64,000 nucleotides of DNA from Gammaproteobacteria bacterium (GTDB lineage: Bacteria; Pseudomonadota; Gammaproteobacteria; WFUO01). The position numbers were made by a program, and so were the translations under genes. The DNA lies in contig WFUO01000005.1 in the NCBI GenBank assembly GCA_015484945.1, forward strand, positions 14,382 through 78,381. Reading direction: 5' to 3'. Shown here piece after piece: positions 4,936-50,512 of this stretch. Numbering within the stretch: position 1 is the stretch's first letter; each line of letters begins with the position of its first letter. The notes under the pieces were generated by a model. The model ran no database searches. It saw nothing but the letters and a program-made list of their open reading frames with translations, and was not told the origin of the DNA.

Positions 4936-6028
<1,093 letters not shown>

Positions 6029-9973: not shown

Positions 9974-10166
9974 GGGCGGATCCTCCAGATCATATCGTTG
10001 TGTATTGTGGCGGCCTGCCCGGGCTGAAGCAGCGTGGCGCCGCCCTGTATCCCGCATATCGGCCGCGGGTGGCAAGGCTTGAGCCGGCCGGGGGCGGGCC
10101 GGCTTCCTGTCTCAACAGGTCTGGCGGGTGTATAATTTCTCCCCCTGCGGGACCGGAGGTGGTGTG

Positions 10167-16119: not shown

Positions 16120-16212
16120 GTAAGGTTTACTCGGGGCCGGTCCTGATGCAGTATTCCTTTTGGGGGTGACGGCGCCTGGCGCCACAGACACGACAAGACG
16201 GTACAGGCAGAC

Positions 16213-17322
16213 ATGACCGCGAACCGCGACCAGACAACGGGAAAGGAACGCCGCGCCGTCGAACGGCGTTCGGGGGAGGACCGGCGCCGGCCACAGGCCA
16301 CCAGCGCCTGGCAGGGCGCGGCCTGGTCCGACCAGCGTATCCAGTTCATCACACGTTACCTGTTCGGCGCCCTGACCTGGGTGTACATGAACCATGTGCA
16401 CACCTTCAGGCCCGACTGGATGTCGTTGACCCAGATGAACCTGCTGATCGTCAGCTATTTCGTTTGGGTTACTCTGGTGCTGCTGCATGCGCGCCGGCAT
16501 GAATACTCGCCCACGCGTTTCCGTATCGCCATGTGGGTGGACGTGCTGTATGTATCCGTCCTGGTGCTCAACGATCCCTACAGCGTGCCGCTGATGTCGA
16601 TGATCTATATCATCATCGTGCTTGGCAACGGCATGCGTTACGGCATGCAGAGCTTCACCGAATCGCTGATCGCCTGTTTTCTCGGCGCCATGATCACCCT
16701 GACCTTGCGTTATGCCGGTTCGCTCAACGGCATGAGCGGCGGCGTGATCTTCATGAACGTGTTCGGCGGCATCATCCTGATCTATGCCTACATCCTCATG
16801 TACCGGGTCGATAGCGCGCGCCGCGAGCAGGAGCGCAACAGCGTCCTGGATCCGCTCACCGGTCTGCTCAACCGTGGCGGTTTCATGGACAAGGCCGCGC
16901 AGATGATGGAGTTCGTGCGTGACAACCCGCACCGCTGCACGCTGATGTTCTGCGACATGGACAAGTTCAAGCAGATCAACGACAGCGCCGGTCATGCCGA
17001 GGGCGACCGGGTGCTGAAGGCGGTGGCCGGCATCATCCGCGAAAACATCCGCCAGGTGGATCTGGCCGGGCGCTATGGTGGCGACGAGTTCGTCATCATC
17101 CTCGATGGTACCGGCATCGACGACGCCGAACACATCGCCCTGCGTATCCAGCAGGGTGTGCGGCGTTGGGCGCAGGAAAATGGTCTCGACGTGAGTATCA
17201 CGATCGGTATTGGCGAGGCCATGACCCATGGCGACAGCCTCCAGGCCCTGCTCGACAGCGTGGACAAGGCCCTGTACCGGTCCAAGCAGACGCATGGCGC
17301 CGGTGGGCTGTGCCGCGCCTGA
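16213..17322 (+). CDS. Membrane-bound diguanylate cyclase (multi-TM N-terminus + GGDEF)
   Basis: Five or so TM helices, then DPLTGLLNRGGF...DMDKFKQINDSAGHAEGD...RQVDLAGRYGGDEF. Carries a GGDEF active site with an RxxD I-site. Confidence 0.88.
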   Translation: MTANRDQTTGKERRAVERRSGEDRRRPQATSAWQGAAWSDQRIQFITRYLFGALTWVYMNHVHTFRPDWMSLTQMNLLIVSYFVWVTLVLLHARRHEYSPTRFRIAMWVDVLYVSVLVLNDPYSVPLMSMIYIIIVLGNGMRYGMQSFTESLIACFLGAMITLTLRYAGSLNGMSGGVIFMNVFGGIILIYAYILMYRVDSARREQERNSVLDPLTGLLNRGGFMDKAAQMMEFVRDNPHRCTLMFCDMDKFKQINDSAGHAEGDRVLKAVAGIIRENIRQVDLAGRYGGDEFVIILDGTGIDDAEHIALRIQQGVRRWAQENGLDVSITIGIGEAMTHGDSLQALLDSVDKALYRSKQTHGAGGLCRA

Positions 17323-17342
17323 AGCGATAGCGGAGAACGTCC

Positions 17343-19019
17343 ATGAGAAATCTGTTGTTCCTGTTGCTGCTGCTGGCCAGTCCGGCGGCCATGCCGATGT
17401 CGTCGAAGGGCGCACGGCCACCCGCCGCGGCGATCGCCAGCGCTCACCCGCTGGCCACACAGGCCGGCTTCGAAATCCTTGCCGCTGGTGGTAATGCCTT
17501 CGATGCGGCCGTCGCCGTCACCGCCGTGCTGGGCGTGGTCGAGCCCTACAGTTCGGGGCTTGGTGGCGGCGGTTTCTGGCTGTTGTACCGGGCCAGTGAC
17601 GGCAGGCGGGTGATGATCGACGGGCGAGAGCGCGCACCCCTGAAGGCGCACCGCGACATGTATCTGGACGGCAAGGGCAAGCCGGTGCCAGGGTTGTCGA
17701 TCAATGGCCCGCTGGCGGCCGGCATACCGGGCGAACCGGCCGCGCTCGTGCACCTGGCCAGACACTATGGCAGGCTGCCGCTGAAGCGCACACTGGCGCC
17801 GGCGATCAGGATCGCCAGGCGCGGCTTCCGGGTCGATGCGCATTACCGGCGCATGGCGCGTTTTCGCATCCGGGCCCTGCGCCGTTCGTCCGAGGCGGCC
17901 CGCATCCTGTTGATGAAGGGCGACGTGCCGCCCATTGGCTACATAATTCGCCAGCCGGAGCTGGCCAACACACTCGAGGCCCTGGCCAGACGCGGTCATG
18001 CCGGTTTCTATGCCGGGCCGGTGGCAAGGGCGCTGGTGCGCGGGGTGCGCAAGGCCGGCGGCATCTGGACGCTCGAGGATCTGGCAGGCTACCGGGTCGT
18101 CGAACGGCGCCCGGTCATCGGTCATTACCGTGGCATGACCATCGTTTCGGCCGCGCCGCCATCGTCGGGCGGTATCGTGCTGGTCATGATGCTCAACATC
18201 CTGTCCAGCTTCGATGCCATCGATCTGATCCGGCCACGGCACGTGCACCTGGTCGTCGAGGCCATGCGCCGGGCCTATTACGACCGGGCCCGCTATCTCG
18301 GCGATCCGGATTTCGTCCGCATCCCGGTCGAACGCCTGTTGTCGCAGGCCCATGCCCGGCAATGGCGTGCGGGTATTCGCATGGACCGGGCCACACCGAG
18401 CAGCAGCCTGCCGCCAATTACGACCGGCCAGCCTGGCGGAAGGGATACCACCCACTTCTCGATCATCGATCGTGAAGGCAACCGGGTTGCCGCCACGCTC
18501 AGCATCAATTATCCGTTCGGTTCCGCTTTCATGCCGCCCGGCACCGGGGTGCTGCTCAACGACGAGATGGACGATTTCTCGATCAAGCCCGGCACCCCCA
18601 ACGTCTATGGCCTGGTCGGCAACGATGCCAATGCCATCGCGCCCGGCAAGCGTCCCCTGTCGAGCATGTCACCCACCTTTGTCGAAAGCCGCGATGCTGT
18701 CATGCTGATCGGAACGCCAGGGGGCAGCCGCATCATCAGCATGGTGCTGCTGGGCATTCTCGGTCATTCGAACGGCCTGACGGCAGGCGAGATCGTCACC
18801 ATGCCGCGTTTTCATCACCAGTATCTGCCGGATCTGATTCAGTTCGAGCCCGGGGCGCTGAGCCAAAAGCAGCAGGCGGGGCTGCGCCGGATGGGGCATC
18901 GTCTGCAGGCGCTCAAATCACGTTACGGCAACATGCAGGTCATTGTCTGGGACAAGCGCCGCGGCCGTGTCAGCGCCGCCAGCGACCCGCGCGGCATCGG
19001 CCGTGCCAGGGTAAGATGA
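17343..19019 (+). CDS. ggt: Gamma-glutamyltranspeptidase
   Basis: Signal peptide; nucleophile motif DTTHFSIIDREGN; PGGSRII and SSMSPT motifs. Confidence 0.93.
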   Translation: MRNLLFLLLLLASPAAMPMSSKGARPPAAAIASAHPLATQAGFEILAAGGNAFDAAVAVTAVLGVVEPYSSGLGGGGFWLLYRASDGRRVMIDGRERAPLKAHRDMYLDGKGKPVPGLSINGPLAAGIPGEPAALVHLARHYGRLPLKRTLAPAIRIARRGFRVDAHYRRMARFRIRALRRSSEAARILLMKGDVPPIGYIIRQPELANTLEALARRGHAGFYAGPVARALVRGVRKAGGIWTLEDLAGYRVVERRPVIGHYRGMTIVSAAPPSSGGIVLVMMLNILSSFDAIDLIRPRHVHLVVEAMRRAYYDRARYLGDPDFVRIPVERLLSQAHARQWRAGIRMDRATPSSSLPPITTGQPGGRDTTHFSIIDREGNRVAATLSINYPFGSAFMPPGTGVLLNDEMDDFSIKPGTPNVYGLVGNDANAIAPGKRPLSSMSPTFVESRDAVMLIGTPGGSRIISMVLLGILGHSNGLTAGEIVTMPRFHHQYLPDLIQFEPGALSQKQQAGLRRMGHRLQALKSRYGNMQVIVWDKRRGRVSAASDPRGIGRARVR

Positions 19020-29156: not shown

Positions 29157-29342
29157 AAACACTATACTTCGTTGGCATATAAGCAGCCACTTCTGTCGAG
29201 AAAACTATAACCTTCTGAATATTCAATAAAATGTTACTGAAATTAGCACTGTGCGGTTGCCGCATTCGTGTTATAGTGGCATTACTGCGGTCGCATTGCC
29301 TGACACCACTGCGGCCTGAACAACCCAAGAGAGTACCACCCT

Positions 29343-30545
29343 ATGAATACCATTCTGAATTTCCTGTCTGACGGCCTGTTGCAATTGAATGGCTGGCAGA
29401 TCGCCGCGATCACCCTGGTTCTGGTGCAGGTGACCATCGCCGGCGTCACGTTGTACCTGCACCGTTGCCAGGCGCATCGCGCCGTTGACCTGCATCCGAT
29501 CGTCAGTCATTTCTTCCGTTTCTGGCTGTGGCTGACCACCGGCATGTCCACCAAGGCCTGGGTCGCGATCCATCGCAAGCACCATGTGCACTGCGAAACC
29601 GAAAACGACCCGCACAGCCCGGTCGTGCATGGCATCCGCAAGCTGCTGCTGGACGGCACTGACCTGTACCGCAAGGAATCGCGCGTGCAGGAGACCCTGG
29701 ACAAGTACGGCAAGGGCACGCCCAACGACTGGCTGGAGCGCAACCTGTACATGCGCTTCCCGCGTGGCGGCATCTTCCTGATGCTGTTCCTGGACCTGGC
29801 CATGTTTGGCGTCGTGGGCATGACCGTATGGGCCATCCAGATGATGTGGATCCCGTTCTGGGCCGCCGGTGTCATCAACGGCGCCGCCCACTGGTGGGGC
29901 TACCGTAACTTCAAGACCCCGGATACCGCTACCAACCTGTGGCCGATCGCGTTCTGGATCGGTGGCGAGGAGCTGCACAACAACCATCACGCCTTTCCGG
30001 GTTCTGCCAAGTTCTCGTATCACAAGTGGGAGTTCGACATCGGCTGGCTGTATCTGAACATCCTGTCGCTGCTGGGGCTGGCGAAGATTCGCAAGGTCGC
30101 GCCGCGGCCGGTCATCGATCCGAGCAAGCAGTCGCTCGATGCCGAGAGCATCAAGGCCTTGCTGACCAACCGCCTGGCGGTCATGGCAGACTACATGCAC
30201 AAGGTCACGCGCCCGGTCATGAAGCGCAAGTCCTGTCTTGGCGACGATTGTCGTCATTTGGTGCGCCGCGCCATGAACCTGCTCAAGCAGGACCCGAAGC
30301 TGCTCGATCCGAACAGCAACGAGACCTTCGAGAAGGTCATCAACAGCGACGAGGAGCTGCGCACCGTTTACCGCTTCCAGCAAAGCCTGGCCGCGCTGTG
30401 GGAAAAGCTGCACGACAACCACGAGGCGGCCCTGGCCGCGGTTAGTGACTGGGTTCGCCAGGCCGAACAGACCGGCATCAAGGCGCTGCAGGAATTTGCC
30501 CGCAGCCTGCCGCACTACCGGCTGGGGAAATCCTCCATGGCCTGA
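29343..30545 (+). CDS. Membrane fatty-acid (acyl-lipid/acyl-CoA) desaturase, DesA-like
   Basis: Three His boxes are present: HRCQAH, HRKHH and HNNHHAF. N-terminal TM helices; ~400 aa. Confidence 0.85.
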   Translation: MNTILNFLSDGLLQLNGWQIAAITLVLVQVTIAGVTLYLHRCQAHRAVDLHPIVSHFFRFWLWLTTGMSTKAWVAIHRKHHVHCETENDPHSPVVHGIRKLLLDGTDLYRKESRVQETLDKYGKGTPNDWLERNLYMRFPRGGIFLMLFLDLAMFGVVGMTVWAIQMMWIPFWAAGVINGAAHWWGYRNFKTPDTATNLWPIAFWIGGEELHNNHHAFPGSAKFSYHKWEFDIGWLYLNILSLLGLAKIRKVAPRPVIDPSKQSLDAESIKALLTNRLAVMADYMHKVTRPVMKRKSCLGDDCRHLVRRAMNLLKQDPKLLDPNSNETFEKVINSDEELRTVYRFQQSLAALWEKLHDNHEAALAAVSDWVRQAEQTGIKALQEFARSLPHYRLGKSSMA

Positions 30546-30566
30546 CGTCAATTGCGTCAGCCAGCC

Positions 30567-30596
30567 AAAAAAGCCCGCACGAGCGGGCTTTTTTGT
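30567..30596. terminator. Bidirectional rho-independent terminator
   Basis: AAAAAAGCCCGC-acga-GCGGGCTTTTTT is a perfect stem flanked by an A-run and a T-run. Lies 22 nt after the desaturase stop. Confidence 0.8.
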
Positions 30597-30804
30597 TGCC
30601 ATGCTGGCGTTATTGCCAATGTGTTTGCTGGTTGTGCGGTCACAGGGCGTACGGAAATCTCGCTGGAGTCGCGGCGTTGTGTGGCGAGGGGCTGATGACA
30701 ATTCGTATTCATTCCCGTTTGTTGCCAGCGCCATTTTTTCAGGCCGTGGCGCAGTGTTCCCGCGCGCCGAGTTGAATTTGTCACTCCGCGTCTTGAGGCA
30801 CAAA

Positions 30805-30826
30805 AAACCCGCCAGCCGGCGGGTTT
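30805..30826 (-). terminator. Rho-independent terminator of rpmB-rpmG
   Basis: On the minus strand, AAACCCGCC-ggct-GGCGGGTTTTTTG, 24 nt after the rpmG stop. Confidence 0.8.
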
Positions 30827-30849
30827 CCAGGAGCAGGAAGCGGGATCGC

Positions 30850-31005
30850 CTACTTGATCTTGGCTTCCTTGTAGATGACGTGCTTGCGCACCACCGGATC
30901 GTACTTTTTGATTTCCATCTTTTCAGGCATCGTACGCTTGTTCTTGTCGGTGGTGTAGAAGTGGCCGGTACCGGCACTGGAAACGAGTCTGATCTTTTCG
31001 CGCAT
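30850..31005 (-). CDS. rpmG: 50S ribosomal protein L33
   Basis: Not in the ORF track (51 aa). My translation is [60 protein letters not shown] present. Confidence 0.93.
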
Positions 31006-31015
31006 GACAGCCTCC

Positions 31016-31252
31016 TCAGACCTTTTCGCCGCGGGCGCGCATGTCGGCCAGAACGCTGTCGATGCCGTTCTTGTCGATGATACGCATGCCCTTGGATGAA
31101 ACCCGCAGGCGAACCCAGCGGTTCTCGCTTTCCACCCAGAAGCGGTGGGTGTGCAGATTGGGCAGGAAACGACGACGCGTCTTGTTGTGCGCGTGCGAGA
31201 CGTTGTTTCCGCTCATCGGGCGCTTGCCCGTTACCTGGCATACTTTGGACAT
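31016..31252 (-). CDS. rpmB: 50S ribosomal protein L28
   Basis: [33 protein letters not shown]...; 78 aa. The track ORF has a spurious N-terminal extension. Confidence 0.95.
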
Positions 31253-31342
31253 GTGCTTGCTCCGGTTCTCGATCGTTCTGCACCCACACGGGGCAGCAAG
31301 ACCGGGGATTCTACTGGCCCCGCGGCCAACTTGCAAGCCTGG

Positions 31343-40551: not shown

Positions 40552-43500
40552 ATGACAGCAGCAGAAAAATTGCTTGATATTGAAATACTTAGAAAGCTAA
40601 CCCCGCTCGAGACCCTGTCCGACGCCCACCTGGCGGATCTTGCCCGCAAGGCTTCGATCGAGACGTTCAAGAGTGGCAAATACCTGTTTCGGCAGGGCAA
40701 ACGCGATCCCGACACCTGGTATGTTCTCGAGGGAGAGGTGGCGCTGCTCAACGGCAAGACCGTCGAGGCGCTGATCAGGGGCGGCAGCGACAAGGCGCTC
40801 AGCCCGCTTGCGCCGGGCATGCCGCGCCCCCTGTCGGCACGCGCCAACACCATGGTCAAGGCCCTGCGCATCGACACAGGCCTGCTCGATGTCATCCTGT
40901 CGTGGGATCAGTCGCAGAACTCGCAGTACGAGGTCACCGAGATCCAGTCCGAGGACGACGAGGACTGGATGACACGCATGCTGCAGTCCGAGATGTTCCA
41001 GCGCCTGTCCGCGAGCAACATCCAGCAATTGATCATGAAGATGGAAGAGGTTGGCTTCAGGGCGGGCGAGATCGTCGTCAGCCAGGACGAGGAAGGCGAC
41101 TACTACTACATCATCAAGAGTGGCCAGGCCGAGGTCATCAGGCGGCCTGGCAATGGCCCGCGTCTGGTCAAGATTGCCGAACTGCGGGCCGGTGACAGTT
41201 TCGGTGAAGAGGCGCTGTTGTCAGGCGGCAAGCGCAACGCCACCATTCGCATGATGACCGACGGCAAGCTCATGCGTCTGTCGAAAGAGGATTTCGACGC
41301 CCTGTTGCGCGAACCGCTGGTGGAACAGCTCGACTACGCACAAGTACAGGAAAAGCTCAAGCAGGGCGCGATGGTCATCGATGTGCGCCTCCCCGGTGAG
41401 TTCCGTCAGCAGCGTATCGATGGCAGCATCAACCTGCCTGTGGCCAGTATTCGCACTTCCACCGACAAGCTCAACCGGGATCGTGACTACATCGTCGTTT
41501 GTGACACCGGCACACGCAGCGCAAGCGCCGCTTTCCTGCTCAAGAAGCTCGGCTTCAACACCTTCATGCTGGCCGACGGCCTGGCCAGTGTGCCACAGGA
41601 AGCAATGGTCGGGACCGTGGAAACCGCGCGTGACATCGCTGTGGGCCAAAGCGAGACCGCCGGTGCCGAGATCATCGACTTCAAGCCGGGCCAGAAAGAG
41701 GAAAACGGGGGCGACGGTGAACGCGAGCAGGCCAAGGAATTGCAGGACCAGTTGCAGGAAATGCGCCGCCAGCTTGCCGAGGGCCAGCAAAAGCTCGGTC
41801 AACAGCAGGCGCGTCTGACCCAGCTCGGTGTGGAGGAGGAAAAACGCCGCGCCAGCATAGACAATCTGGGCGGCAGTCTTGAGGCCGCCAGTCAGCAACA
41901 GCAGGAGATCGCGCGCCTCAAGCAGGAACTGGAAGAGGCCACCCGGCGCATGAACGAACAGGCCGGCCAGCTCAGTGATTCGCGTACGGGCGGCGCGCAG
42001 CACGAAGAGAAGGTACGCCAACTCAGTGCCGAGCTCAAGGCCATGCAGGAACGGCTGCAGGAGGCCGATCACGTCATTGAGCAGAAGGCCAGTGAGCAGC
42101 AGGCCGTGTCCGAGCTGCAGAAGGAACTCGAGCAGGCGCGCGAGGAGAACCGCAAGCAGCAGGAACAGCTCAACCGGCAACTCGGCCAGTTGCAGGAAGA
42201 GATCAACCGGCGGGATCGCAACATGGCCCGTTTGCAGAGCAGCATGGAGGAGAAGCAACAGGCGCTCAAGGCCATCGAGAACGCCAAGGCGGCCGAGATA
42301 GACGGCTACGAAAAGCGCCTGCGCGAGCTGGAGGAAAAGCTCGCCCAGCAGTCCGACCAGACCACCCAGGTCAGTCAGGACATGCGCAACGAGATCGCGG
42401 CTCTCAAGGCCGATCGCGATGCCGCGGTGCAGAGTCTGCAAAGCGAACTGGAACAGGCGCGTGGTGAACTCGAGCAGTTCAACGAACAACTGAAAAAGAG
42501 CGTTGCCGAGCGCCAGCAGGCTGAGGAATCGCTGGATGCATTGCAGAGTGAACTGCACAGCTTGCGCGAGACGGCTGAACAGCAAAAGCGCGCGCTGGAA
42601 AAGGAAAAGGCGGCGTTGCGCGCCGAGCTCGAATCAGCGCGCCAGTCACTGGAAGAGAAGGCGCGCGAATTCGAACACAATGAACAGCTTCTGCAGGAGG
42701 AAAAGGCCAGCCTGCAGGCCAAGCTGGAACAGACACGCGAGGCGCTGGCCCGGCGCGAACAGGAACTCGAGGCGCGTGAACAGGAAAGCCGCAAATCGCA
42801 GGAGCAACTACAGCAGGAACTGGCGTTGGCGCGCGAGGCGCTGGCCCGGCGCGAACAGGCACTGGAGGAAGAACGTCAGCGCCTGGAACGCGAGCGTGAG
42901 GAGGCCCTGCGCCAGGAACGTGAGCGTCTCGAGCAGGAACGTGAACGGCAGCTGCAAACCGAGCGCGAGGAACTGGAGCGTGAGCGTGAGGCGCGCCTGG
43001 AGGAAGAACGCGAGCGACTGGAGCGTGAACGGGAAGAGGCGCTCAGGCAGGAACGCGAACGTCTGGAACGCGAGCGTGAGGAACAACTGCGCCAGGAACG
43101 TGAGCGCCTGGAACGTGAACGCGAGGAACAGTTACGCAAGGAACGCGAACGCCTGGAACGCGAACGCGAGGAACAGCTACGCAAGGAACGCGAGCGCCTG
43201 GAGCGTGAACGCCAACAGCAGATCGAGGAAGAACGTCAGCGGCTCGAGGAAGAAAAGGCACGACTGCGGCGGCAGAAAGAGGAGGAACTGTCCAGGCTGC
43301 GTGCCGAACTCGAGTCAACGCGCAATACCCTGGAGGAAAAGACCCAGGAACTGGATCGCTTTGCCGAGCAACATCGTCAGGCCCTGGAGGCCAAGCAGCA
43401 ACTCGAGGCCACCATCAGCCAGTCACATGCCGCGCTGCAACAGGTGCAAAAGGAACTGGAAGAGAAACAGCGCATCCTGGAGCAGACCGAGCATCAGAGC

Positions 43501-45627
43501 AAGGAAGTCGAACAGCAACGGCGCCAGGAGATCGAAAACCTCAACCGCGATGTCGAAACCCTGCGCAGGCGCTGGGAAAAGGCGCTGACCGAGAAGGAAC
43601 GTCTCGAAAAGGCTTACGAGGAGCAGTCCAGTCAGCTCAAGGCCAAGGGACAGTCGCTGCAGGACGCGATCGACAGTGGCGCTGATTCCGAAGAGGTCAA
43701 GCGCCTGCAGGAAGAACTCGAGGCGCTCAAGCGGCAGATGAGCGAGGACGACAAGATCTACCAGAAGCAGCTCGAAAGTCTGCGCGAAGAGCTGTTGGCC
43801 AATTCGCAGAATCAGCTTCAGGCCGAGATCGACAAGGCCCGGGCCGAGGCCGAGGAAGAGATCCGGCAATTACGCAAGGAACTCGAAGAGGCCAACCAGA
43901 ACAGTGCCGCAGCGCAGGCCGCATTGCGCGAGCGCGAAGAGATTCTCGAGAAACAGCGTCAGGAGCTGGCCGGCCTGCAGGCCGAACTCGACATGGCGCA
44001 ACAGCAGGGCGACGACACCGAACATCTGCACCAGCAGATGCAGACCCTGCGCAAGGCCATGGCGCACGAGGTCGAGGAACATCGCAGAAAACTCGAAGAG
44101 GCCATGTTCAAGGTCAAGCAGGAGAATACCGAACTGCGGCGCGAACTCGAGGGCTTCTATCGTGATGCCGAACTGGCGTCCGAGATCGGTGGTTCCGCCA
44201 GTGGCTTTGCCGGCAGCAGTCTGAGCGGTTTCACCAACAGCCAGGTCAGCGGTTATGCCGACAGCAGCATGGCCGAACCGCTGGATGTCAAGGATCTCGG
44301 CAGTGGCCCCATGTCCACCCCGGGGCCGGAGTCCATTCTCGAGCCACCGTCTTCCCCGGCGCCGAGCCAGTCCAAACAGACCGTGGCCAGGCCAACGGAG
44401 AAAAAGGAACAAAAGACAGAGGCGGAGAATGCCGTCGATCCGATGTCCGAATTCACGCCGCCTGACGACCTGCCGGAATCGACCTTCGACAGCAGCGATA
44501 TTTTCTCGCTCGCCGATATGGATGCCAACCTGTTCAGTGAACAGCAACCGGAAGAGAAGAAATCCTCCAGGGGCAAGCTCATTGTCGCGGCCGTTCTGCT
44601 GCTCGCCGCCGGCGGCGGCGCGGCGTGGTGGTTCCTCGGGCGCGGCACACCACCGCCGGCACCGTCCATGACCAGGGCCGTGCCGACAAGCACCAGCACA
44701 GTGACACCGCCGGCTGCCGCCCCCGTGAAACCCGCTGTGGCGACGGCAGCCAAATCACCCGCACCGGTGACCGCCAGGCGGCCCGCGCCGGCGCCCGTGA
44801 AACCTGCCGTGCCGGCTGCACCGGTGGCGAAGGAAACCGTGGTTTCGAAACCGGCGGCCAGGACGTCCGTGGTTGGCGTACCGGGCGGTTTGCGTCCCGG
44901 GCGCGTCTGGCGTGACAGGCTCAAGAACGGTGGCTATGGTCCGGTCATGGTCCAGGTGCCGGGAGGCAGCTTCATGATGGGCAGTCCGGCCGGTACCACC
45001 TATTTCGACGAACGACCGCAGCATGCCGTCAGCATCCGTCCGCTGGCGGTGAGTCGCTACGAGATCACGTTCGCCGAATACGATGTCTTTGCGCGCGCCA
45101 CCGGGCGCAGGCGGCCGTCCGACAATGGCTGGGGGCGTGGCCGCCGGCCGGTGGTCAATGTGAGCTGGGATGATGCGCGTGCCTATGCCGCCTGGCTGAG
45201 CAGGCAGACCGGGCATAAATACCGCTTGCCGACCGAAGCCGAATGGGAATACTTCGCCCGTGCAGGGACGAAGGAACGTTACTGGTGGGGTCGTCATCCC
45301 CGCAAGGGGCTGGCCAACTGTTTCAATTGCGGTTCGAAATGGGATGCGCGGCAGACCGCACCGGTGGGCAGCTTCAAGCCCAACCCGCTGACCCTGTACG
45401 ATGTTTCCGGCAACGTGCTCGAATGGGTGCAGGATTGCTACCGCAAGAACTATGACGCCGCGCCCAGCGATGGCAGCGCGGTGGAGTTCGCCGGTTGCAG
45501 TGAACGGGTTGCGCGTGGCGGTTCCTATCGGAGCACCATCAAGAACATGCGTGTGACACGCCGCTATCATTTCCCGCCCGGGGTGCGCGTTGACAACATC
45601 GGCTTCCGGCTGGTGCGCGAAAAATAA
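40552..45627 (+). CDS. Giant multidomain protein: cNMP-binding x2, rhodanese, ~800-aa coiled coil, TM helix, FGE-sulfatase-fold (SUMF1/EgtB/PvdO family) domain
   Basis: Single 5076-nt ORF. Contains FGEEALLSGGKRNATIR (a cNMP phosphate-binding cassette) and a rhodanese with loop CDTGTR. A long E/Q/R/L-rich helix is followed by the TM helix LIVAAVLLLAAGGGAAWWFL. The C-terminal RLPTEAEWEYFARAG...NVLEWVQDCY...RGGSY is FGE-fold. Confidence 0.85.
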   Translation: MTAAEKLLDIEILRKLTPLETLSDAHLADLARKASIETFKSGKYLFRQGKRDPDTWYVLEGEVALLNGKTVEALIRGGSDKALSPLAPGMPRPLSARANTMVKALRIDTGLLDVILSWDQSQNSQYEVTEIQSEDDEDWMTRMLQSEMFQRLSASNIQQLIMKMEEVGFRAGEIVVSQDEEGDYYYIIKSGQAEVIRRPGNGPRLVKIAELRAGDSFGEEALLSGGKRNATIRMMTDGKLMRLSKEDFDALLREPLVEQLDYAQVQEKLKQGAMVIDVRLPGEFRQQRIDGSINLPVASIRTSTDKLNRDRDYIVVCDTGTRSASAAFLLKKLGFNTFMLADGLASVPQEAMVGTVETARDIAVGQSETAGAEIIDFKPGQKEENGGDGEREQAKELQDQLQEMRRQLAEGQQKLGQQQARLTQLGVEEEKRRASIDNLGGSLEAASQQQQEIARLKQELEEATRRMNEQAGQLSDSRTGGAQHEEKVRQLSAELKAMQERLQEADHVIEQKASEQQAVSELQKELEQAREENRKQQEQLNRQLGQLQEEINRRDRNMARLQSSMEEKQQALKAIENAKAAEIDGYEKRLRELEEKLAQQSDQTTQVSQDMRNEIAALKADRDAAVQSLQSELEQARGELEQFNEQLKKSVAERQQAEESLDALQSELHSLRETAEQQKRALEKEKAALRAELESARQSLEEKAREFEHNEQLLQEEKASLQAKLEQTREALARREQELEAREQESRKSQEQLQQELALAREALARREQALEEERQRLEREREEALRQERERLEQERERQLQTEREELEREREARLEEERERLEREREEALRQERERLEREREEQLRQERERLEREREEQLRKERERLEREREEQLRKERERLERERQQQIEEERQRLEEEKARLRRQKEEELSRLRAELESTRNTLEEKTQELDRFAEQHRQALEAKQQLEATISQSHAALQQVQKELEEKQRILEQTEHQSKEVEQQRRQEIENLNRDVETLRRRWEKALTEKERLEKAYEEQSSQLKAKGQSLQDAIDSGADSEEVKRLQEELEALKRQMSEDDKIYQKQLESLREELLANSQNQLQAEIDKARAEAEEEIRQLRKELEEANQNSAAAQAALREREEILEKQRQELAGLQAELDMAQQQGDDTEHLHQQMQTLRKAMAHEVEEHRRKLEEAMFKVKQENTELRRELEGFYRDAELASEIGGSASGFAGSSLSGFTNSQVSGYADSSMAEPLDVKDLGSGPMSTPGPESILEPPSSPAPSQSKQTVARPTEKKEQKTEAENAVDPMSEFTPPDDLPESTFDSSDIFSLADMDANLFSEQQPEEKKSSRGKLIVAAVLLLAAGGGAAWWFLGRGTPPPAPSMTRAVPTSTSTVTPPAAAPVKPAVATAAKSPAPVTARRPAPAPVKPAVPAAPVAKETVVSKPAARTSVVGVPGGLRPGRVWRDRLKNGGYGPVMVQVPGGSFMMGSPAGTTYFDERPQHAVSIRPLAVSRYEITFAEYDVFARATGRRRPSDNGWGRGRRPVVNVSWDDARAYAAWLSRQTGHKYRLPTEAEWEYFARAGTKERYWWGRHPRKGLANCFNCGSKWDARQTAPVGSFKPNPLTLYDVSGNVLEWVQDCYRKNYDAAPSDGSAVEFAGCSERVARGGSYRSTIKNMRVTRRYHFPPGVRVDNIGFRLVREK
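43006..43215 (+). repeat. In-frame 45-bp tandem repeat (about 4.7 copies) encoding ERERLEREREE(A/Q)LR(Q/K)
   Basis: Unit boundaries read directly at 43006, 43051, 43096, 43141 and 43186. Copies differ mostly at synonymous positions. More degenerate copies extend upstream to ~42876. Confidence 0.85.
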
Positions 45628-45660: not shown

Positions 45661-46533
45661 ATGAATCCGGATCGCCAGACCCGCATACTCGGAGTGGGAG
45701 TTGCCACGCTGGATATCGTCAACAGCGTTGAAGACTATCCTGCCGAGGACGAGGAGGTGCGCGCAACCGCGCAGCAGCGCCAGCGCGGCGGCAATGCCAG
45801 CAATACCCTCGTGGTGCTGGCCACGCTTGGGCATGCCTGCGAATGGCTGGGCGTATTGGCCGACGATGCCGAGGCCGGAGAGATCGTCGCCGATCTGGAG
45901 CGGCACGGTGTCGGCCATGCGCACTGCCCGGTCATCACAGATGGCTGTTCGCCGGTTTCGTGGGTGATCCGCAATACCCGTACCGGCTCGCGCACCATCA
46001 TTCATCACCGCCGCCTGCCCGAGCTTCACTTCGATCAGTTTGCGGCCATCGCCCTGCAGGATTTCGACTGGATCCATTTCGAAGGCCGTGAACCTGACGA
46101 GGTGGCGCGTATGATCGGGCATGCGCGCATGCACAGTGGTGCCCGTATCTCGGTCGAGATCGAGAAACCGCGCACTGGTATCGAAATGCTGTATCGAGGC
46201 GTGGACCTGTTGCTGTTTTCGCGCGCCTATGCCCGTGCGCTCGGCCACGATTCGGCGGACGATTTTCTTTCCAAAATGGCAGAGAGGATCCCGGCCACCC
46301 ATTTGGTGTGTGCCTGGGGCGAGCAGGGTGCCTCGGCCATCCCCGCCGACGGAAGCCTTTTTGAAGTGCCTGCCACGCCACCCGAACGTGTGATCGATAC
46401 CCTGGGTGCCGGTGATGTGTTCAATGCCGGGGTCATCGATGCCCTCGTGCGCGGGCAGGATCTGCAAGCCGCCGTGACCGCAGGCTGCCGGCTGGCAGGT
46501 GACAAGTGCGGCCATACGGGGCTGCTGCGGTGA
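45661..46533 (+). CDS. PfkB family sugar/nucleoside kinase (ketohexokinase/ribokinase-like)
   Basis: GVGVATLDIV...GGNASNT... and C-terminal DTLGAGDVFNAG (the PfkB anion-hole/ATP motif). Confidence 0.8.
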   Translation: MNPDRQTRILGVGVATLDIVNSVEDYPAEDEEVRATAQQRQRGGNASNTLVVLATLGHACEWLGVLADDAEAGEIVADLERHGVGHAHCPVITDGCSPVSWVIRNTRTGSRTIIHHRRLPELHFDQFAAIALQDFDWIHFEGREPDEVARMIGHARMHSGARISVEIEKPRTGIEMLYRGVDLLLFSRAYARALGHDSADDFLSKMAERIPATHLVCAWGEQGASAIPADGSLFEVPATPPERVIDTLGAGDVFNAGVIDALVRGQDLQAAVTAGCRLAGDKCGHTGLLR

Positions 46534-46877
46534 GCCAGGGCTTCCTGTGCCGAATCGACGAGCTCGACGACCCGGGCAGCAAGGGCCTGTGCGTCGAGAT
46601 CGATGGCAGGTTGACTGATATCTTCGTCGTACGCCGGGGAGACGAGGTGTTCGCCTATCTGAACCGCTGTCCGCATACCGGCAGTCCGCTCGATTGGTTG
46701 CCAGACCAGTTTCTCGATCTCGATCGAAGCAGTATCCAGTGCGCCACGCATGACGCGCGTTTTCGTATCGAAGACGGAATGTGTTTTAGTGGTCCCTGTC
46801 AGGGTGAATCGCTACAGGCCATCACCGTGCGGCTGCATGACGGTGCAGTGTGGCTGGACCAACCGGGCAGGGTGTGA
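46530..46877 (+). CDS. Rieske [2Fe-2S] domain protein
   Basis: CPHTGSPLD...CATHDARF gives CxH...CxxH. A probable GTG start at 46530 overlaps the PfkB stop (GTGA); the track start at 46506 is the alternative. Confidence 0.8.
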   Translation: MSQGFLCRIDELDDPGSKGLCVEIDGRLTDIFVVRRGDEVFAYLNRCPHTGSPLDWLPDQFLDLDRSSIQCATHDARFRIEDGMCFSGPCQGESLQAITVRLHDGAVWLDQPGRV

Positions 46878-47323: not shown

Positions 47324-47830
47324 TCAGGGGAAGGCGGGCAGGCCAGGCTCGATGCCGCCGTCACGAGCCTCGCCATGGGAGCGTACCAGACGCGAGATTT
47401 CATCCATGCGTTGTCTGGGCACATCCACCATCAACAGGATCTGACCGGCATCGATGGCCTGCTCGAAGCGCCGCAGGCTGGAGTTGCGCACATTGGTCGC
47501 CACCATGCCCGAGACCCACAGGCCGAACAGCGCGCCGGCCAGCGTGCTGGCGAGGATGATGCCGCCGGGCATGCTGCCGAACGAGATGGCGATACTCGCG
47601 ACGATTCCGCCGATCAGTCCGGTGGCGCCGCCGATGATCAGTCCCTGTTCGATACCGTGAACGATGTCGCTGCTTTGCAGCAGGTTGGCCCGTGGCAGGT
47701 CGCCAAGGTCCATGTCCTCACGCGCCAGGACGTGGATGTGATGGTCGTCGATGCGTGAGAGCAGCAGTTCATCGACGATGCGGCGGGTGCTGGCGACATC
47801 GGGGAGCAGGAAATAGAGACGCTTTCTCAT
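47324..47830 (-). CDS. Conserved membrane protein with glycine-zipper helices; function unknown
   Basis: AAGGAGG RBS precedes ATG 47830. Translation MRKRLYFLLPDVASTRRIVDELLL... is followed by GLIIGGATGLIGGIVASIAISFG and ILASTLAGALFGLWVSGMVA. The track ORF extension to 48235 was rejected. Confidence 0.65.
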   Translation of the reverse strand: MRKRLYFLLPDVASTRRIVDELLLSRIDDHHIHVLAREDMDLGDLPRANLLQSSDIVHGIEQGLIIGGATGLIGGIVASIAISFGSMPGGIILASTLAGALFGLWVSGMVATNVRNSSLRRFEQAIDAGQILLMVDVPRQRMDEISRLVRSHGEARDGGIEPGLPAFP

Positions 47831-47927: not shown

Positions 47928-48215
47928 TCAGGTTTCGAGTTCGTCGAGCGGGTTGTTGTGATCGGGATGGGCAGGGGTATCGAGATCCACGCCATAATCC
48001 TCGCGTTCGATGTCCAGTGACCCGGACCAGTCTTCCGGCGCCTCGATGGCCACCGGCCCCATTTCCTCCCAGCTGTCGATGTCGATTTCCTCGATGGTGC
48101 CATCGAAGAACTGGATCTCGATGGTTCCGTCGTCCTCGTCGATGGCGACCACCTCGAATTCCGCGTTCGAGTCGTTCTTGTACCACTCGCCGATGATGGG
48201 AAGGGGGCTCGACAT
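47928..48215 (-). CDS. Small highly acidic hypothetical protein (95 aa)
   Basis: MSSPLPIIGEWYKNDSNAEFEVVAIDEDDGTIEIQFFDGTIEEIDIDSWEE... has coherent composition. It overlaps only the rejected extension of the neighbouring ORF. Confidence 0.6.
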   Translation of the reverse strand: MSSPLPIIGEWYKNDSNAEFEVVAIDEDDGTIEIQFFDGTIEEIDIDSWEEMGPVAIEAPEDWSGSLDIEREDYGVDLDTPAHPDHNNPLDELET

Positions 48216-48436: not shown

Positions 48437-49510
48437 ATGGAAGCCGAGTTGTCGGGGCAGGACATAGAAAGACTGAAAAACCTTGTGCCCCTGTTTACGC
48501 TTTCAGAAGAACGCATTCACGAACTGGCTGCGCTGGCCAGTCTGCGTCATTACGCGGCCGGCACGCATGTGTTTCGGGAGGGCGATGTCGATAACCAGAC
48601 CCTGTACCTGATGCACGGTCAGATCGAGCTGCAGGGCAACGGCGGCCAGCGCAATGAACAGATCGCCGCCGGCACGCCCGAATCCCGGCATCCACTGGGC
48701 GACCATCAACCACGCCAGGTTTCTGCCGTGGCGCTCACCGATGTGACGATCCTGCACATCGACAACAACGTCCTCGACTACATGATCACCTGGGATCAGG
48801 TCGCCTCGATGGCACAGGCCCCCGACGGTGTGAGCGATGAACAGGGTGGCGGCGCCGGCGACCAGCAGGAATTCCGCTGGATGAACAAGATGCTCAGCGC
48901 GGTGCCGTTCCAGAACATTCCTGCCGCCAACATGCGTGATCTGCTCGAGCGAATGGAACAGGTACCGGTACGCAAGGGCGATGTGATCGTCCGCCAGGGC
49001 GAGCCGGGCGACTATTACTATCTGCTGGAGTCCGGGCGCGCCCGTGTGACCCAGGTCGTGGAGCTGGCCGAACTGGGTGAGGGCGCCAGTTTCGGCGAGG
49101 AGGCCCTGATCTCCGATTCGGTGCGCAACGCCACCGTGACCATGGAAACCGACGGTATGCTGCTGCGTCTGTCCAAGGCGCATTTCAACGAAATGCTCAA
49201 GGAGCCGCTGATACACTGGATATCCGCCGACCAGGCGCTGCAGGAAGTGCGGGATGGCAGCATCTGGCTGGATGTGCGCCTGGCGCGCGAATACACCCAC
49301 TATCACCTGGCCAACGCCATCAACATACCGCTCAACGAACTGCGTCAGCGCATGGATGAACTGGACAGGAACACCCGCTACATCTGTTACTGCAAGACCG
49401 GCCGGCGCAGCTCGGCCGCGTCGTTCCTGCTCTCGCAGGCCGGTTTCGATGTTGCCGTTCTGCGCGGCGGGCTGCAGATCCTGCCCGGGGTCATGAAACA
49501 GGTCGTGTGA
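48437..49510 (+). CDS. cNMP-binding x2 + rhodanese protein (stand-alone paralogue of the N-terminus of the giant protein)
   Basis: GDYYYLLESG...FGEEALISDSVRNATV...LRLSKAHFNEMLKEPL...WLDVRL...INIPL...CYCKTGRRSSAA. Collinear with aa 1-370 of the 40552 gene. Confidence 0.85.
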   Translation: MEAELSGQDIERLKNLVPLFTLSEERIHELAALASLRHYAAGTHVFREGDVDNQTLYLMHGQIELQGNGGQRNEQIAAGTPESRHPLGDHQPRQVSAVALTDVTILHIDNNVLDYMITWDQVASMAQAPDGVSDEQGGGAGDQQEFRWMNKMLSAVPFQNIPAANMRDLLERMEQVPVRKGDVIVRQGEPGDYYYLLESGRARVTQVVELAELGEGASFGEEALISDSVRNATVTMETDGMLLRLSKAHFNEMLKEPLIHWISADQALQEVRDGSIWLDVRLAREYTHYHLANAINIPLNELRQRMDELDRNTRYICYCKTGRRSSAASFLLSQAGFDVAVLRGGLQILPGVMKQVV

Positions 49511-49621: not shown

Positions 49622-50512
49622 TCAGCGGCCACGGTTTTCCATCATGCGCTGAATGATCGGCGCCAGGATGATCTCCATCGCAAAACCCATCTTGCCGCCC
49701 GGCACGACGATGGTGTTGCGGCGTGACATGAACGAGCCGCTGATCATGTCGAGCAGGTACGGGAAATCGACATCGAACTTCTTCGGATCGCGGAATCGGA
49801 TCACGACGAAGGATTCGTCCGGGGTCGGGATGTCGCGGGCGATGAACGGGTTGGAGGTATCGACCGTCGGCACGCGCTGGAAGTTGATATCGGTGCGAGA
49901 GAACTGCGGGGTGATGTAGTTCACGTAGTCCGGCATGCGGCGCAGGATGGTATCGACGATGGCTTCGGCGCTGTAGCCGCGCTGGGCATTGTCACGGAAG
50001 ATCTTCTGGATCCATTCCAGGTTGACGATCGGTACCACGCCGATCAGCAGATCGACGTACTTGGCCACGTTGACATCCTCGGTCACCACGCCGCCGTGCA
50101 GGCCTTCGTAGAACATCAGGTCGCTGCCGGGCGGGATGTCTTCCCAGGGCGTGAACTCGCCGGGTTTCTTGTCAGTGCCCAGACGTTCGTTGTGGGCCGC
50201 GGCCTCTTCCTCGCTGTGCAGATAGTAGCGCTTCTGGCCGGTGCCGCTTTCGCCGTATTCACGGAACAGGTCCTCGATCTTGTCGAACAGGTTGGCCTCG
50301 GGACCAAAATGCGAGAGCTGCTTGCCCTCGGCGGCGAATTTCTCGATCGCCTCCTTCATCTCGGCGCGGTCATAGCGATGGAAGCTGTCGCCCTCGACGA
50401 CGACCGGGTTGAGGCCCTCGCGGCGGAAGATGTGCTCGAACGCGACCTTGACGGTCGTCGTGCCGGCGCCGGACGAACCGGTGACCGCGATGACAGGATG
50501 TTTCTGTGACAT
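49622..50512 (-). CDS. prk: Phosphoribulokinase (Calvin cycle)
   Basis: MSQKHPVIAVTGSSGAGTTTVKVAFEHIFRREG...EGDSFHRYDR...; ~295 aa, bacterial PRK type. Confidence 0.92.
   Translation of the reverse strand: MSQKHPVIAVTGSSGAGTTTVKVAFEHIFRREGLNPVVVEGDSFHRYDRAEMKEAIEKFAAEGKQLSHFGPEANLFDKIEDLFREYGESGTGQKRYYLHSEEEAAAHNERLGTDKKPGEFTPWEDIPPGSDLMFYEGLHGGVVTEDVNVAKYVDLLIGVVPIVNLEWIQKIFRDNAQRGYSAEAIVDTILRRMPDYVNYITPQFSRTDINFQRVPTVDTSNPFIARDIPTPDESFVVIRFRDPKKFDVDFPYLLDMISGSFMSRRNTIVVPGGKMGFAMEIILAPIIQRMMENRGR

Follow-up and report, generated by a model that had tools for sequence, protein, structure and literature searches.

The stretch of DNA analysed here (the window) comprises 64,000 nucleotides of contig WFUO01000005.1 (assembly GCA_015484945.1, positions 14,382 to 78,381 of the forward strand) from a gammaproteobacterium of the GTDB lineage WFUO01. 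We focused on one gene, by far the longest open reading frame (ORF) of its region, which runs from an ATG to a stop codon and encodes a protein of 1691 aa; its features are collected in Table 1. From the N- to the C-terminus, the product consists of a head made of two cyclic nucleotide-binding (CNB) domains and a rhodanese, a helical rod, a disordered segment, one transmembrane (TM) helix, a Pro/Ala-rich stalk and a domain with the fold of the formylglycine-generating enzyme (FGE). These domains and their order had been proposed in a preliminary description made from the sequence alone and are now confirmed by profile hidden Markov models (HMMs), structure models or composition, and the motifs quoted there (GDYYYIIKSG, FGEEALLSGGKRNATIR, CDTGTR and LIVAAVLLLAAGGGAAWWFL) were all located in the translation. 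The Pfam scan of the protein returned three families, cNMP_binding, Rhodanese and FGE-sulfatase, the same three that had been put forward. The start codon agrees with the starts of the orthologues in the alignment, AGGGG lies ~7 nt 5′ of it, and the G+C content at third codon positions (GC3, 0.75) is similar to that of the adjacent genes. The same 1691-aa product, with no differences, is encoded in two differently made assemblies, a 95.9-kb metagenome scaffold from ENA and the Logan assembly of run SRR10312491. Between 42001 and 44000 both the AT skew (+0.47) and the GC skew (+0.115) far exceed those of the remaining window, an effect of the rod, whose E, Q, R and K codons make the coding strand rich in purines.

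Table 1. Coordinates (window positions) of the gene, of the segments of its product and of three genes lying downstream.
Feature	Position	Strand	Basis
Whole gene, 1691-aa bitopic protein	40552..45627	+	ORF list, translation
CNB-A (aa ~10-123), CNB fold with degenerate phosphate-binding cassette	40579..40920	+	second Pfam cNMP_binding stretch, AF2, Foldseek, alignment
Inter-CNB linker (aa 126-150), signature E-D-W-M-T-R-M-L-Q-S	40927..41001	+	head alignment, conservation profile
CNB-B (aa 147-256), canonical cNMP-binding domain	40990..41319	+	Pfam, PDB sequence matches, invariant columns
Phosphate-binding cassette of CNB-B, FGEEALLSGGKRNAT	41200-41244	+	coordinates checked
Rhodanese domain (aa 263-346)	41338..41589	+	Pfam Rhodanese, weak NCBIfam matches
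Rhodanese active-site loop, C317-D-T-G-T-R-S	41500-41520	+	sequence
Helical rod (aa 385-1200), coiled-coil-type segments at 390-750 and 900-1200	41704..44151	+	composition, heptad scores
ER-rich 15/30-aa repeat (aa 761-905)	42832..43266	+	TRF, charge and pair statistics
Acidic Ser/Pro-rich juxtamembrane segment (aa 1201-1341), probably disordered	44152..44574	+	composition; low alignment occupancy and identity
Juxtamembrane motif SSDIFSLADMDANLF (aa 1314-1328)	44491-44535	+	common to closest subfamily
Single TM helix (aa 1342-1362, KLIVAAVLLLAAGGGAAWWFL), predicted N-in/C-out	44575..44637	+	hydropathy, positive-inside statistics
Periplasmic Pro/Ala/Val/Thr-rich basic stalk (aa 1363-1463)	44638..44940	+	composition
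FGE-fold (C-type-lectin-like), PvdO-like domain (aa 1464-1689)	44941..45618	+	Pfam, PDB, AF2, Foldseek
Invariant C1590-x-x-C1593	45319-45330	+	family alignment
PfkB-family sugar/nucleoside kinase	45661..46533	+	Pfam PfkB; 33 nt downstream
Small Rieske [2Fe-2S] protein, CPH...CATH ligands intact	46530..46877	+	Pfam Rieske, gene call, sequence
357-aa stand-alone head paralogue (CNB-CNB-rhodanese)	48437..49510	+	Pfam; sequence comparison

The head was modelled with AlphaFold2 (AF2) from an alignment of 21 heads, from which its conservation was also judged, and the model of aa 1-372 has a mean predicted local distance difference test (pLDDT) of 85.7. Pfam finds cNMP_binding (PF00027) in two stretches, the better of which covers aa 169-253 (E 1.4e-26) in CNB-B. 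This domain combines the CNB fold with an intact G-E...R cassette, in which F217, G218, E219 and R228 are invariant across the 21 heads, and it matches protein kinase G (PKG) and the regulatory subunit of protein kinase A (PKA-R) among PDB sequences. CNB-A, on the other hand, has the fold only: its beta-barrel is modelled with pLDDT >90, the G-E pair of the cassette is lost and P91-R92 is conserved. The best matches of the head model among PDB structures searched with Foldseek are the tandem CNB-A/B of PKA RI-alpha and PKG (E 1e-18 to 1e-20), and this likeness to tandem-CNB regulators indicates that aa 1-120 form, as modelled, a genuine CNB fold despite the degenerate cassette. What is shared with PKA RI-alpha and PKG is two consecutive CNB domains of the same fold and order, with F-G-E...R in CNB-B (Foldseek E about 1e-20; phmmer E 1e-19 to 1e-24). 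However, identity is ~20%, the matches are confined to the CNB domains, CNB-A lacks G-E, and the output of PKA and PKG is a kinase, whereas here a rhodanese is fused. The linker between the two CNB domains is the best conserved part of the head (0.72 identity, W139 invariant).

The C-terminal helix of CNB-B (aa 245-256 in the AF2 model), corresponding to the element that moves upon ligand binding in PKA, Epac and CAP, is followed a few residues later by the first helix of the rhodanese. The Pfam Rhodanese match (aa 263-345, 50.8 bits, E 2.4e-13) includes an active-site loop of the CxxGxRS type, whose C317 is the sole Cys among the 1341 cytoplasmic residues and is present in at least 90% of the aligned relatives. 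Weak NCBIfam matches were obtained with PspE, GlpE and the C-terminal domain of ThiI, which have in common with it the rhodanese fold and the catalytic Cys in a C-x-x-G-x-R-S loop; yet these matches fall far below the equivalog cut-offs (33.9 vs 102 bits for PspE) and the present putative sulfurtransferase is fused behind two CNB domains. A CRP/FNR transcription factor, which requires a C-terminal helix-turn-helix (HTH), was ruled out: no HTH was found in the 1691-aa protein by the Pfam and NCBIfam scans, and it is the rhodanese that follows CNB-B. The linker leading from the head to the rod (aa 351-385) is poorly conserved and has low pLDDT.

The head occurs also as a protein in its own right. 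Its paralogue in the window, 2.8 kb downstream of the gene, is 38% identical to it over 349 aa (E 1e-83). When one genome per species was scanned and the ORFs were re-called in the best 80 loci, a stand-alone head of ~350 aa was the commonest form (59 loci, 304-398 aa), the others being 15 loci with the full architecture (1105-1860 aa), 1 more of this kind cut by its contig end, and 5 intermediates (500-822 aa). An exhaustive search of 1.84 billion representatives gave 2954 clusters matching the head at E<=1e-30, a count that may contain other tandem-CNB proteins. The best 150 of these representatives have lengths between 301 and about 3800 aa, the majority not exceeding ~2000, and in most of them the head is N-terminal (1-370 aligned), a few multi-stretch matches deviating. 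By its distribution, then, the head is an autonomous, widespread module. Around 61 stand-alone loci we found housekeeping synteny only (holB, pilZ-like, tmk and mltG-like genes, named by sequence inspection). In four relatives (P0087, P0091, P0092 and P0096) a PP2C phosphatase is placed directly behind the head, at aa 372-580 in P0091, and ahead of the rod, the TM helix and the FGE fold. Such an insertion is expected if the head is a regulatory module, and these variants look like a cyclic nucleotide (cNMP)-dependent protein phosphatase, the mirror image of PKG. The literature yielded no characterised protein with the full domain combination, as the preliminary description had supposed, and no paper on the CNB-CNB-rhodanese head; no characterisation of the stand-alone head turned up either, in searches that were not aimed at that form.

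The composition of the rod is extreme, with 1 Pro in 830 aa (aa 371-1200) and 23% E, 14% Q, 13% R, 12% L and 10% A. Its heptad signal is strong at aa 390-750 and 900-1200 and weak at 750-900. The scarcity of Pro is a family trait (median Pro content 0.11%), while identity among orthologues is ~20%, i.e., the rod is conserved in composition only. Its matches to SMC, Rad50, the crescentin rod, tropomyosin and HmpF are weak and far below cut-off (32 vs 567 bits and similar values for SMC/Rad50). Membership of the SMC/Rad50 family was rejected, since the coiled-coil stretches alone match and Pfam shows no ATPase domain. As for the Pfam families listed for orthologues, PF19220 and PF00261 gave, upon re-scanning of five relatives, weak sub-threshold matches to the crescentin rod and tropomyosin, i.e., coiled-coil noise, and PF24161 and PF28422 were absent from the same five. 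If the rod were one straight continuous helix, a length of up to ~100 nm would be possible, as estimated earlier; on the other hand, Gly clusters and the weak SMC-like matches allow that it kinks or forms a hairpin.

Within the rod, Tandem Repeats Finder (TRF) detected an imperfect DNA tandem repeat at 42869-43214, with periods of 45 and 90 and 68-80% matches, which encodes EREREEQLRQERERL units. The corresponding ER-rich segment is 70% charged and has 0.32 opposite-charge i/i+4 pairs per residue, making it a candidate for a single alpha-helix of the ER/K type. This segment cannot be considered a family trait, a possibility that we rejected, because among the 97 family members only the window protein itself has such a segment; its uniqueness points to a recent lineage-specific expansion. 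Altogether, the low identity compared with the ends, the variable length and the lineage-specific ER repeat would fit a rod that acts as a spacer.

The juxtamembrane segment (18% S, 10% P, net charge -15) is gap-rich and less than 15% identical among 22 relatives. It nevertheless carries the motif SSDIFSLADMDANLF, which is present in P0002-P0026 and, by regular expression, in 17 of 95 members, and is replaced by IPSLDENDP in a different subfamily; both may be docking motifs. The TM helix that follows (hydropathy 2.04) is the only hydrophobic helix of the protein. One TM helix at the equivalent relative place, 250-420 aa from the C-terminus, was found in 95 of the 97 members, and the 15 aa preceding it contain on average 2.8 K+R as compared to 1.1 in the 15 aa that follow, with more before than after in 71 of these 95. 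The stalk (20% P, 19% A, net charge +13) varies in the family from 40 to 162 aa (median 68), and one of ~100 aa could, by our own estimate, bridge much of the periplasm if extended. Since the N-terminus is not hydrophobic, inspection of the sequence gave no signal peptide. The K+R bias, the cytoplasmic type of the N-terminal domains and the Cys-rich, PvdO-like tail with its four invariant cysteines support an N-in/C-out topology, and PvdO, the nearest relative of the C-terminal domain, is periplasmic (PMC6206403). The view that the sensing parts are cytoplasmic and the FGE fold periplasmic is therefore retained.

Pfam FGE-sulfatase (PF03781) matches aa 1464-1689 with 197.5 bits (E 4e-58). The AF2 model of this domain (pLDDT 80.7, predicted TM-score 0.83) superposes best on PvdO (5hha; Foldseek TM-score 0.77, 36% identity) and next on FGEs (TM-score 0.66-0.70), and 5hha is also the best solved relative by sequence (E 1.8e-38). 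Four cysteines, C1590, C1593, C1629 and C1649, are invariant in 97 of 97 members, and there is no Cys beyond aa 1649. C1629 and C1649 align with cysteines of PvdO, whereas the A-N-C-x-x-C-G motif containing C1590 and C1593 is missing from both PvdO and FGE. In human FGE, Cu(I) is bound by C336 and C341, which come after an R-G-G-S motif. This catalytic pair is missing here: the segment GGSYLCHDSYCNRYR of the S. coelicolor FGE (2q17) aligns to GGSYR---STIKNMR, so that the domain has the fold of FGE/SUMF1 and is not a true member.

The other enzymes of this fold were rejected as well. The PvdO equivalog (NCBIfam NF051459, dihydropyoverdine dehydrogenase) scored 160.1 bits against a cut-off of 500, and no pvd gene turned up among those ORFs of the window that were scanned, the neighbours being xthA, pyrE, a PfkB kinase and a Rieske protein. 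EgtB (68 vs 360 bits, model positions 273-412) and OvoA (53 vs 400 bits) match with their FGE-like C-terminal parts alone; the iron site of these enzymes sits in an N-terminal DinB-like domain, and no DinB domain was found by the Pfam scan of the 1691-aa protein. PorK/GldK, a lipoprotein of the type IX secretion system ring, scored 79.5 vs 350 bits; the window protein has no N-terminal signal and its host is gammaproteobacterial. Thus, of the earlier assignment to the FGE/EgtB/PvdO group, the fold stands and the enzymatic reading is not supported: the C-terminal domain is probably a non-enzymatic FGE fold and belongs to none of the enzyme families with which it was compared. PvdO remains its closest counterpart, having in common the FGE/C-type-lectin fold over the whole domain, the lack of the FGE catalytic cysteines, the C1629/C1649 pair and the periplasmic location; it is, however, a small soluble protein encoded in the pvdMNO operon, always alongside PvdP (PMC6206403), and without the ANCxxCG motif, whereas the domain described here forms the C-terminal end of a membrane protein of 1691 aa.

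The CxxC motif is not peculiar to the giant proteins: of the 120 closest FGE-fold proteins, 119 contain it. Many of the 120 have ~285-290 aa and are 55-60% identical; the four that were inspected start with a hydrophobic segment, and others come from very short contigs and are perhaps fragments. One stand-alone protein of 289 aa (locus L083, 6001-8717), with CxxC and without the catalytic Cys pair, is encoded directly upstream of a sulfatase gene, a single case that may be due to chance. Three further relatives (P0180, P0210 and P0238) are TIR-FGE proteins whose FGE fold is of the same CxxC subfamily and 55-59% identical to the tail of the window protein; in P0180 and P0238 an intervening TM can be recognised. 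One and the same periplasmic module is thus joined to a very different cytoplasmic domain. The layout of these proteins, and of Ser/Thr kinase-TM-FGE and caspase-FGE proteins, is the same as that of the window protein (a signalling domain in the cytoplasm, a single TM helix and the FGE fold at the C-terminus), the difference being that the latter has a cNMP-binding rhodanese head and an ~800-aa rod. In signalling fusions the FGE domain is always C-terminal (PMC7159879; 10.1101/2025.01.12.632604; 10.1101/2022.02.16.480423). The fold has been described as a C-type-lectin-like scaffold, frequently devoid of catalysis and placed C-terminally, in conflict systems and in the variable proteins of diversity-generating retroelements (PMC7159879), is reused as a binding scaffold by the type VI secretion immunity protein Tsi3 (10.1101/2021.05.21.445229) and as a scaffold by PorK (PMC12421860), occurs at the C-terminus of bacterial Ser/Thr kinases including the 'Proteo1' family (10.1101/2025.01.12.632604), and is present in Thiomargarita in >100 copies to which no function has been assigned (10.1101/2022.02.16.480423).

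A search of 5.8 billion proteins with the cNMP + rhodanese + FGE architecture returned 96 further clusters (972-2026 aa), some on contigs >1 Mb; those that are named come from metagenome-assembled genomes of Gammaproteobacteria (Sedimenticola, Thiogranum, Sulfuriflexus). The loci of the species scan come from Thiohalobacter, Thiogranum, Sedimenticola, Thiohalomonadaceae, Ectothiorhodospiraceae and Steroidobacteraceae. Judged by these taxa and sequences, the protein belongs to a conserved family of uncultured Gammaproteobacteria of the sulfur-oxidiser type. A MAFFT alignment of 22 close relatives shows that head and tail are 50-75% identical to those of the window protein, as compared to ~20% for the rod and <15% for the disordered segment; both ends are thus under strong constraint, and the middle is constrained in composition only. 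The cytoplasmic stretch from head to TM varies fivefold in length (270 to 1341 aa). Head and rod are retained in relatives without the FGE domain, some with a TM helix and a short tail and others with no TM. Conversely, locus L084 (GCA_020445335.1, JAGRGU010000033.1, 5014-6858) holds a 614-aa ORF with a TTG start and with coiled coil, TM, stalk and FGE fold, and no head; a Rieske gene lies directly behind it, the public gene call (P0129, 285 aa) covers the tail alone, and it is either a head-less or a decayed member. Public records of the family bear automatic names only, e.g., 'SUMF1/EgtB/PvdO family nonheme iron enzyme', and one orthologue is called 'Phage protein'.

Other known proteins offer further parallels. 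FimV and HubP are large bitopic polar hub proteins, anchored in the envelope through a periplasmic domain; they have a single TM helix, and their long cytoplasmic region, acidic and rich in repeats, serves to organise signalling proteins. FimV is also tied to cAMP signalling; this is an analogy only, given that their LysM domain is periplasmic and N-terminal, hence of opposite polarity, and that they contain no CNB, rhodanese or FGE-fold domain. CbpA (PA4704) of Pseudomonas aeruginosa can be likened by description only, as a bacterial non-transcriptional cAMP-binding protein. It was reportedly found by Endoh and Engel in 2009 to pair a degenerate N-terminal CNB with a functional C-terminal CNB, and we take it to be small and soluble, without rhodanese, rod, TM helix or periplasmic domain. 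CbpA binds cAMP, is not a transcription factor, is located at the pole and its function is not known (PMC3019171; PMC11139211).

Upstream of the gene lie coaBC, dut, an algC-like mutase gene, argB, a TauE gene, pyrE (minus strand) and xthA. Downstream, the PfkB gene, for which all NCBIfam matches are far below cut-off and no equivalog was obtained, is overlapped by the Rieske gene, whose product has no export signal. There is no terminator-like site in the 33-nt gap, a scan for promoters and terminators gave nothing above chance, and both genes, PfkB in the first place, are probably co-transcribed with the giant gene. At the 15 other loci with the full architecture, PfkB lies directly downstream in 9 and Rieske downstream in 7, and this linkage, which may be lineage synteny, is kept also at loci with an inverted upstream block. 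Between the gene and its paralogue are a 168-aa ORF without family match (47324-47830, minus strand) and the gene of a DUF6763 protein (47928-48215, minus strand), both of which are again encountered behind the long gene at several related loci.

Elsewhere, the window carries DsrC-like, phosphoribulokinase, TauE and NnrS genes and therefore looks like that of a sulfur-oxidising autotroph. Two of these that together point to such a host are the phosphoribulokinase gene (49622-50512) and the DsrC-like ORF (9254-10075, minus strand, 273 aa). The latter contains two DsrC-like stretches (Pfam E 1e-62); it may encode a tandem or duplicated DsrC, or else the ORF rule has merged two genes. Three long ORFs on the minus strand are without Pfam match, at 15244-17460, 29271-31289 and 3579-5309 (738, 672 and 576 aa); the first two have a low GC3 (0.61 and 0.56 vs about 0.75-0.85 in their neighbours) and may therefore be foreign, fast-evolving or not real genes.

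Taken together, these data lead us to favour, tentatively and with a confidence short of an even chance, the interpretation that the protein spans the inner membrane once and is a membrane-tethered, non-transcriptional (non-CRP) cyclic-nucleotide receptor, with a rhodanese output, a rod serving as spacer or dimeriser, and a periplasmic anchor or binding module. Binding of a cNMP to CNB-B would shift the hinge/lid helix and so gate the access to, or the reactivity of, C317 for persulfide transfer or sensing. The ~815-aa Pro-free rod would dimerise the protein and keep the heads at a variable distance from the membrane, and may double as a surface for docking. Together with the ~100-aa stalk and the lectin-fold domain, the TM helix would fix the molecule in the envelope via a periplasmic partner or ligand, candidates being a protein, a glycan, peptidoglycan or, via the invariant CxxC, a metal. 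Any communication across the membrane would occur by localisation or clustering, and not by a rigid conformational relay, because flexible segments flank the rod on either side. The earlier proposal that the rod links a cyclic-nucleotide signal, or a persulfide state, to the periplasmic domain does not agree with the low-pLDDT linker behind the head, the ~140 gap-rich residues before the TM helix, the ~100-aa stalk and the relatives lacking FGE domain or TM; rigid transmembrane allostery along the rod is unlikely.

Several observations weigh against the receptor interpretation. The predicted TM-score of the head model (0.54) leaves the relative orientation of its three domains uncertain, so that gating of C317 can only be inferred, and two aligned relatives have Ser in place of C317, meaning that catalysis is not universal. 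We take the R-N-A-T of CNB-B to fit neither the R-A-A of PKA nor the R-T-A of PKG, and the ligand (cAMP, cGMP or another cNMP) is not readable from the cassette. The rod could, by analogy with SMC proteins, fold back on itself. The synteny with PfkB and Rieske is not explained by a receptor, and the invariant CxxC together with the conserved Rieske neighbour leaves room for a periplasmic redox function.

The main rival is a receptor working from the outside in, in which the periplasmic FGE fold senses a ligand and the dimerisation or clustering induced by it switches the output of the head (the rhodanese or, in the variants, PP2C), cNMP being a further input, similar to bitopic Ser/Thr kinases with extracytoplasmic sensor domains. 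The occurrence of the same C-terminal module across a TM from TIR domains (P0180, P0238) and from Ser/Thr kinases ('Proteo1', 10.1101/2025.01.12.632604; Thiomargarita, 10.1101/2022.02.16.480423) speaks for this possibility, as do the PP2C variants, which look like signalling enzymes, and the strong conservation of both termini. Yet between sensor and output would lie the ~100-aa stalk, a disordered segment of ~140 aa, a poorly conserved rod of ~815 aa and the flexible head linker; moreover, the spacer varies fivefold in length, and some relatives have head and rod but lack the FGE domain or any TM. We regard this alternative as serious, though unlikely.

A structural role, whereby the rod forms filaments or a sub-membrane lattice anchored by the TM helix and the periplasmic domain, with the cNMP head controlling assembly, is rather unlikely. 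It would account for 815 Pro-free residues with heptad periodicity and for relatives that are soluble head-plus-rod proteins, and the crescentin rod, tropomyosin, SMC and HmpF appear among the weak matches. These matches, however, fall far short of the cut-offs and are of a sort that any coiled coil gives, the sequence bears no sign of lateral assembly, and the rod is poorly conserved in both sequence and length.

Distinctly improbable is a periplasmic redox enzyme, which would follow the NCBI name 'SUMF1/EgtB/PvdO family nonheme iron enzyme': the PvdO-like domain would oxidise a substrate via its CxxC and an electron partner such as the Rieske protein, and the cytoplasmic part would regulate or localise it. 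PvdO, the best match by sequence and fold, is genetically required for an oxidation step, although the purified protein was cofactor-free and inactive (PMC6206403). The CxxC is invariant (97/97) and the Rieske gene is conserved downstream; yet thousands of FGE-fold proteins from varied contexts carry CxxC as well, and the Rieske protein, being without an export signal, would reside in a separate compartment from the periplasmic domain. In addition, the FGE catalytic Cys pair is missing, and the EgtB and OvoA models align over nothing but their FGE-like C-terminal parts, with no DinB-like match.

Very remote is the chance of an anti-phage or conflict component, i.e., a Pycsar-type cNMP-activated effector or a 'neutralising' sensor with an FGS domain. 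FGS domains do occur in conflict systems (PMC7159879), TIR-TM-FGE relatives exist and PADLOC gave weak Pycsar effector matches (27.7 bits for the giant protein, 44.5 bits for the paralogue). These PADLOC matches are limited to the generic CNB fold and to coiled coil, on which ground membership was rejected; there is no toxic effector domain, and the gene lies among housekeeping genes (coaBC, dut, argB, pyrE, xthA) in a synteny kept across genera. Pycsar effectors are a CNB fused to a TIR or TM effector and are encoded beside a PycC cyclase, yet no adjacent cyclase was found: none of the five downstream genes scanned matches a cyclase model as a whole protein, Pfam gave none among the upstream neighbours, and none was recognised among the window ORFs scanned. 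Finally, although the 340-bp imperfect tandem repeat inside the gene could mislead short-read assemblers, the chance that two or more genes were joined by mis-assembly or by a missed stop is practically nil and an artefact is ruled out, since its copies share only 68-80%, the ENA and Logan assemblies agree, and the uninterrupted architecture recurs in 96 other clusters (some on contigs >1 Mb) and 15 species-level genomes.

What emerges is not the undescribed system that had been suggested; it is one gene family, already annotated automatically, with loosely conserved neighbours. Its modules are all known, and the layout of cytoplasmic domain, TM and FGE fold is known from kinases and TIR proteins, hence it is not categorically new. 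A more ambitious version of the receptor interpretation, which we consider improbable, would see in the family a new class of second-messenger effector, a single polypeptide reaching from the outer periplasm up to ~100 nm into the cytoplasm and holding a cNMP-gated persulfide-transfer head at a set distance. It would organise or switch a cytoplasmic sulfur relay in sulfur-oxidising autotrophs, like a self-anchoring bacterial counterpart of an A-kinase anchoring protein with PKA-R, and the same head would drive PP2C in sister proteins.

Few bacterial cyclic-nucleotide effectors beyond the CRP-type transcription factors have been characterised (PMC11139211). The CNB-CNB-rhodanese head represents a large unstudied family, found as a protein by itself as well as combined with long rods, PP2C phosphatases or membrane anchors, and although its significance rests on predictions it is a good target for work on such effectors. 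The family would also provide a clean, non-defence case of a non-catalytic FGE-fold domain used as the C-terminal extracytoplasmic module of signalling proteins, and in the window protein nature may have used a very long coiled coil, including an ER/K-like helix, as an intracellular spacer. If cNMP gates the rhodanese Cys, second-messenger signalling would be tied directly to persulfide chemistry in sulfur-oxidising autotrophs.

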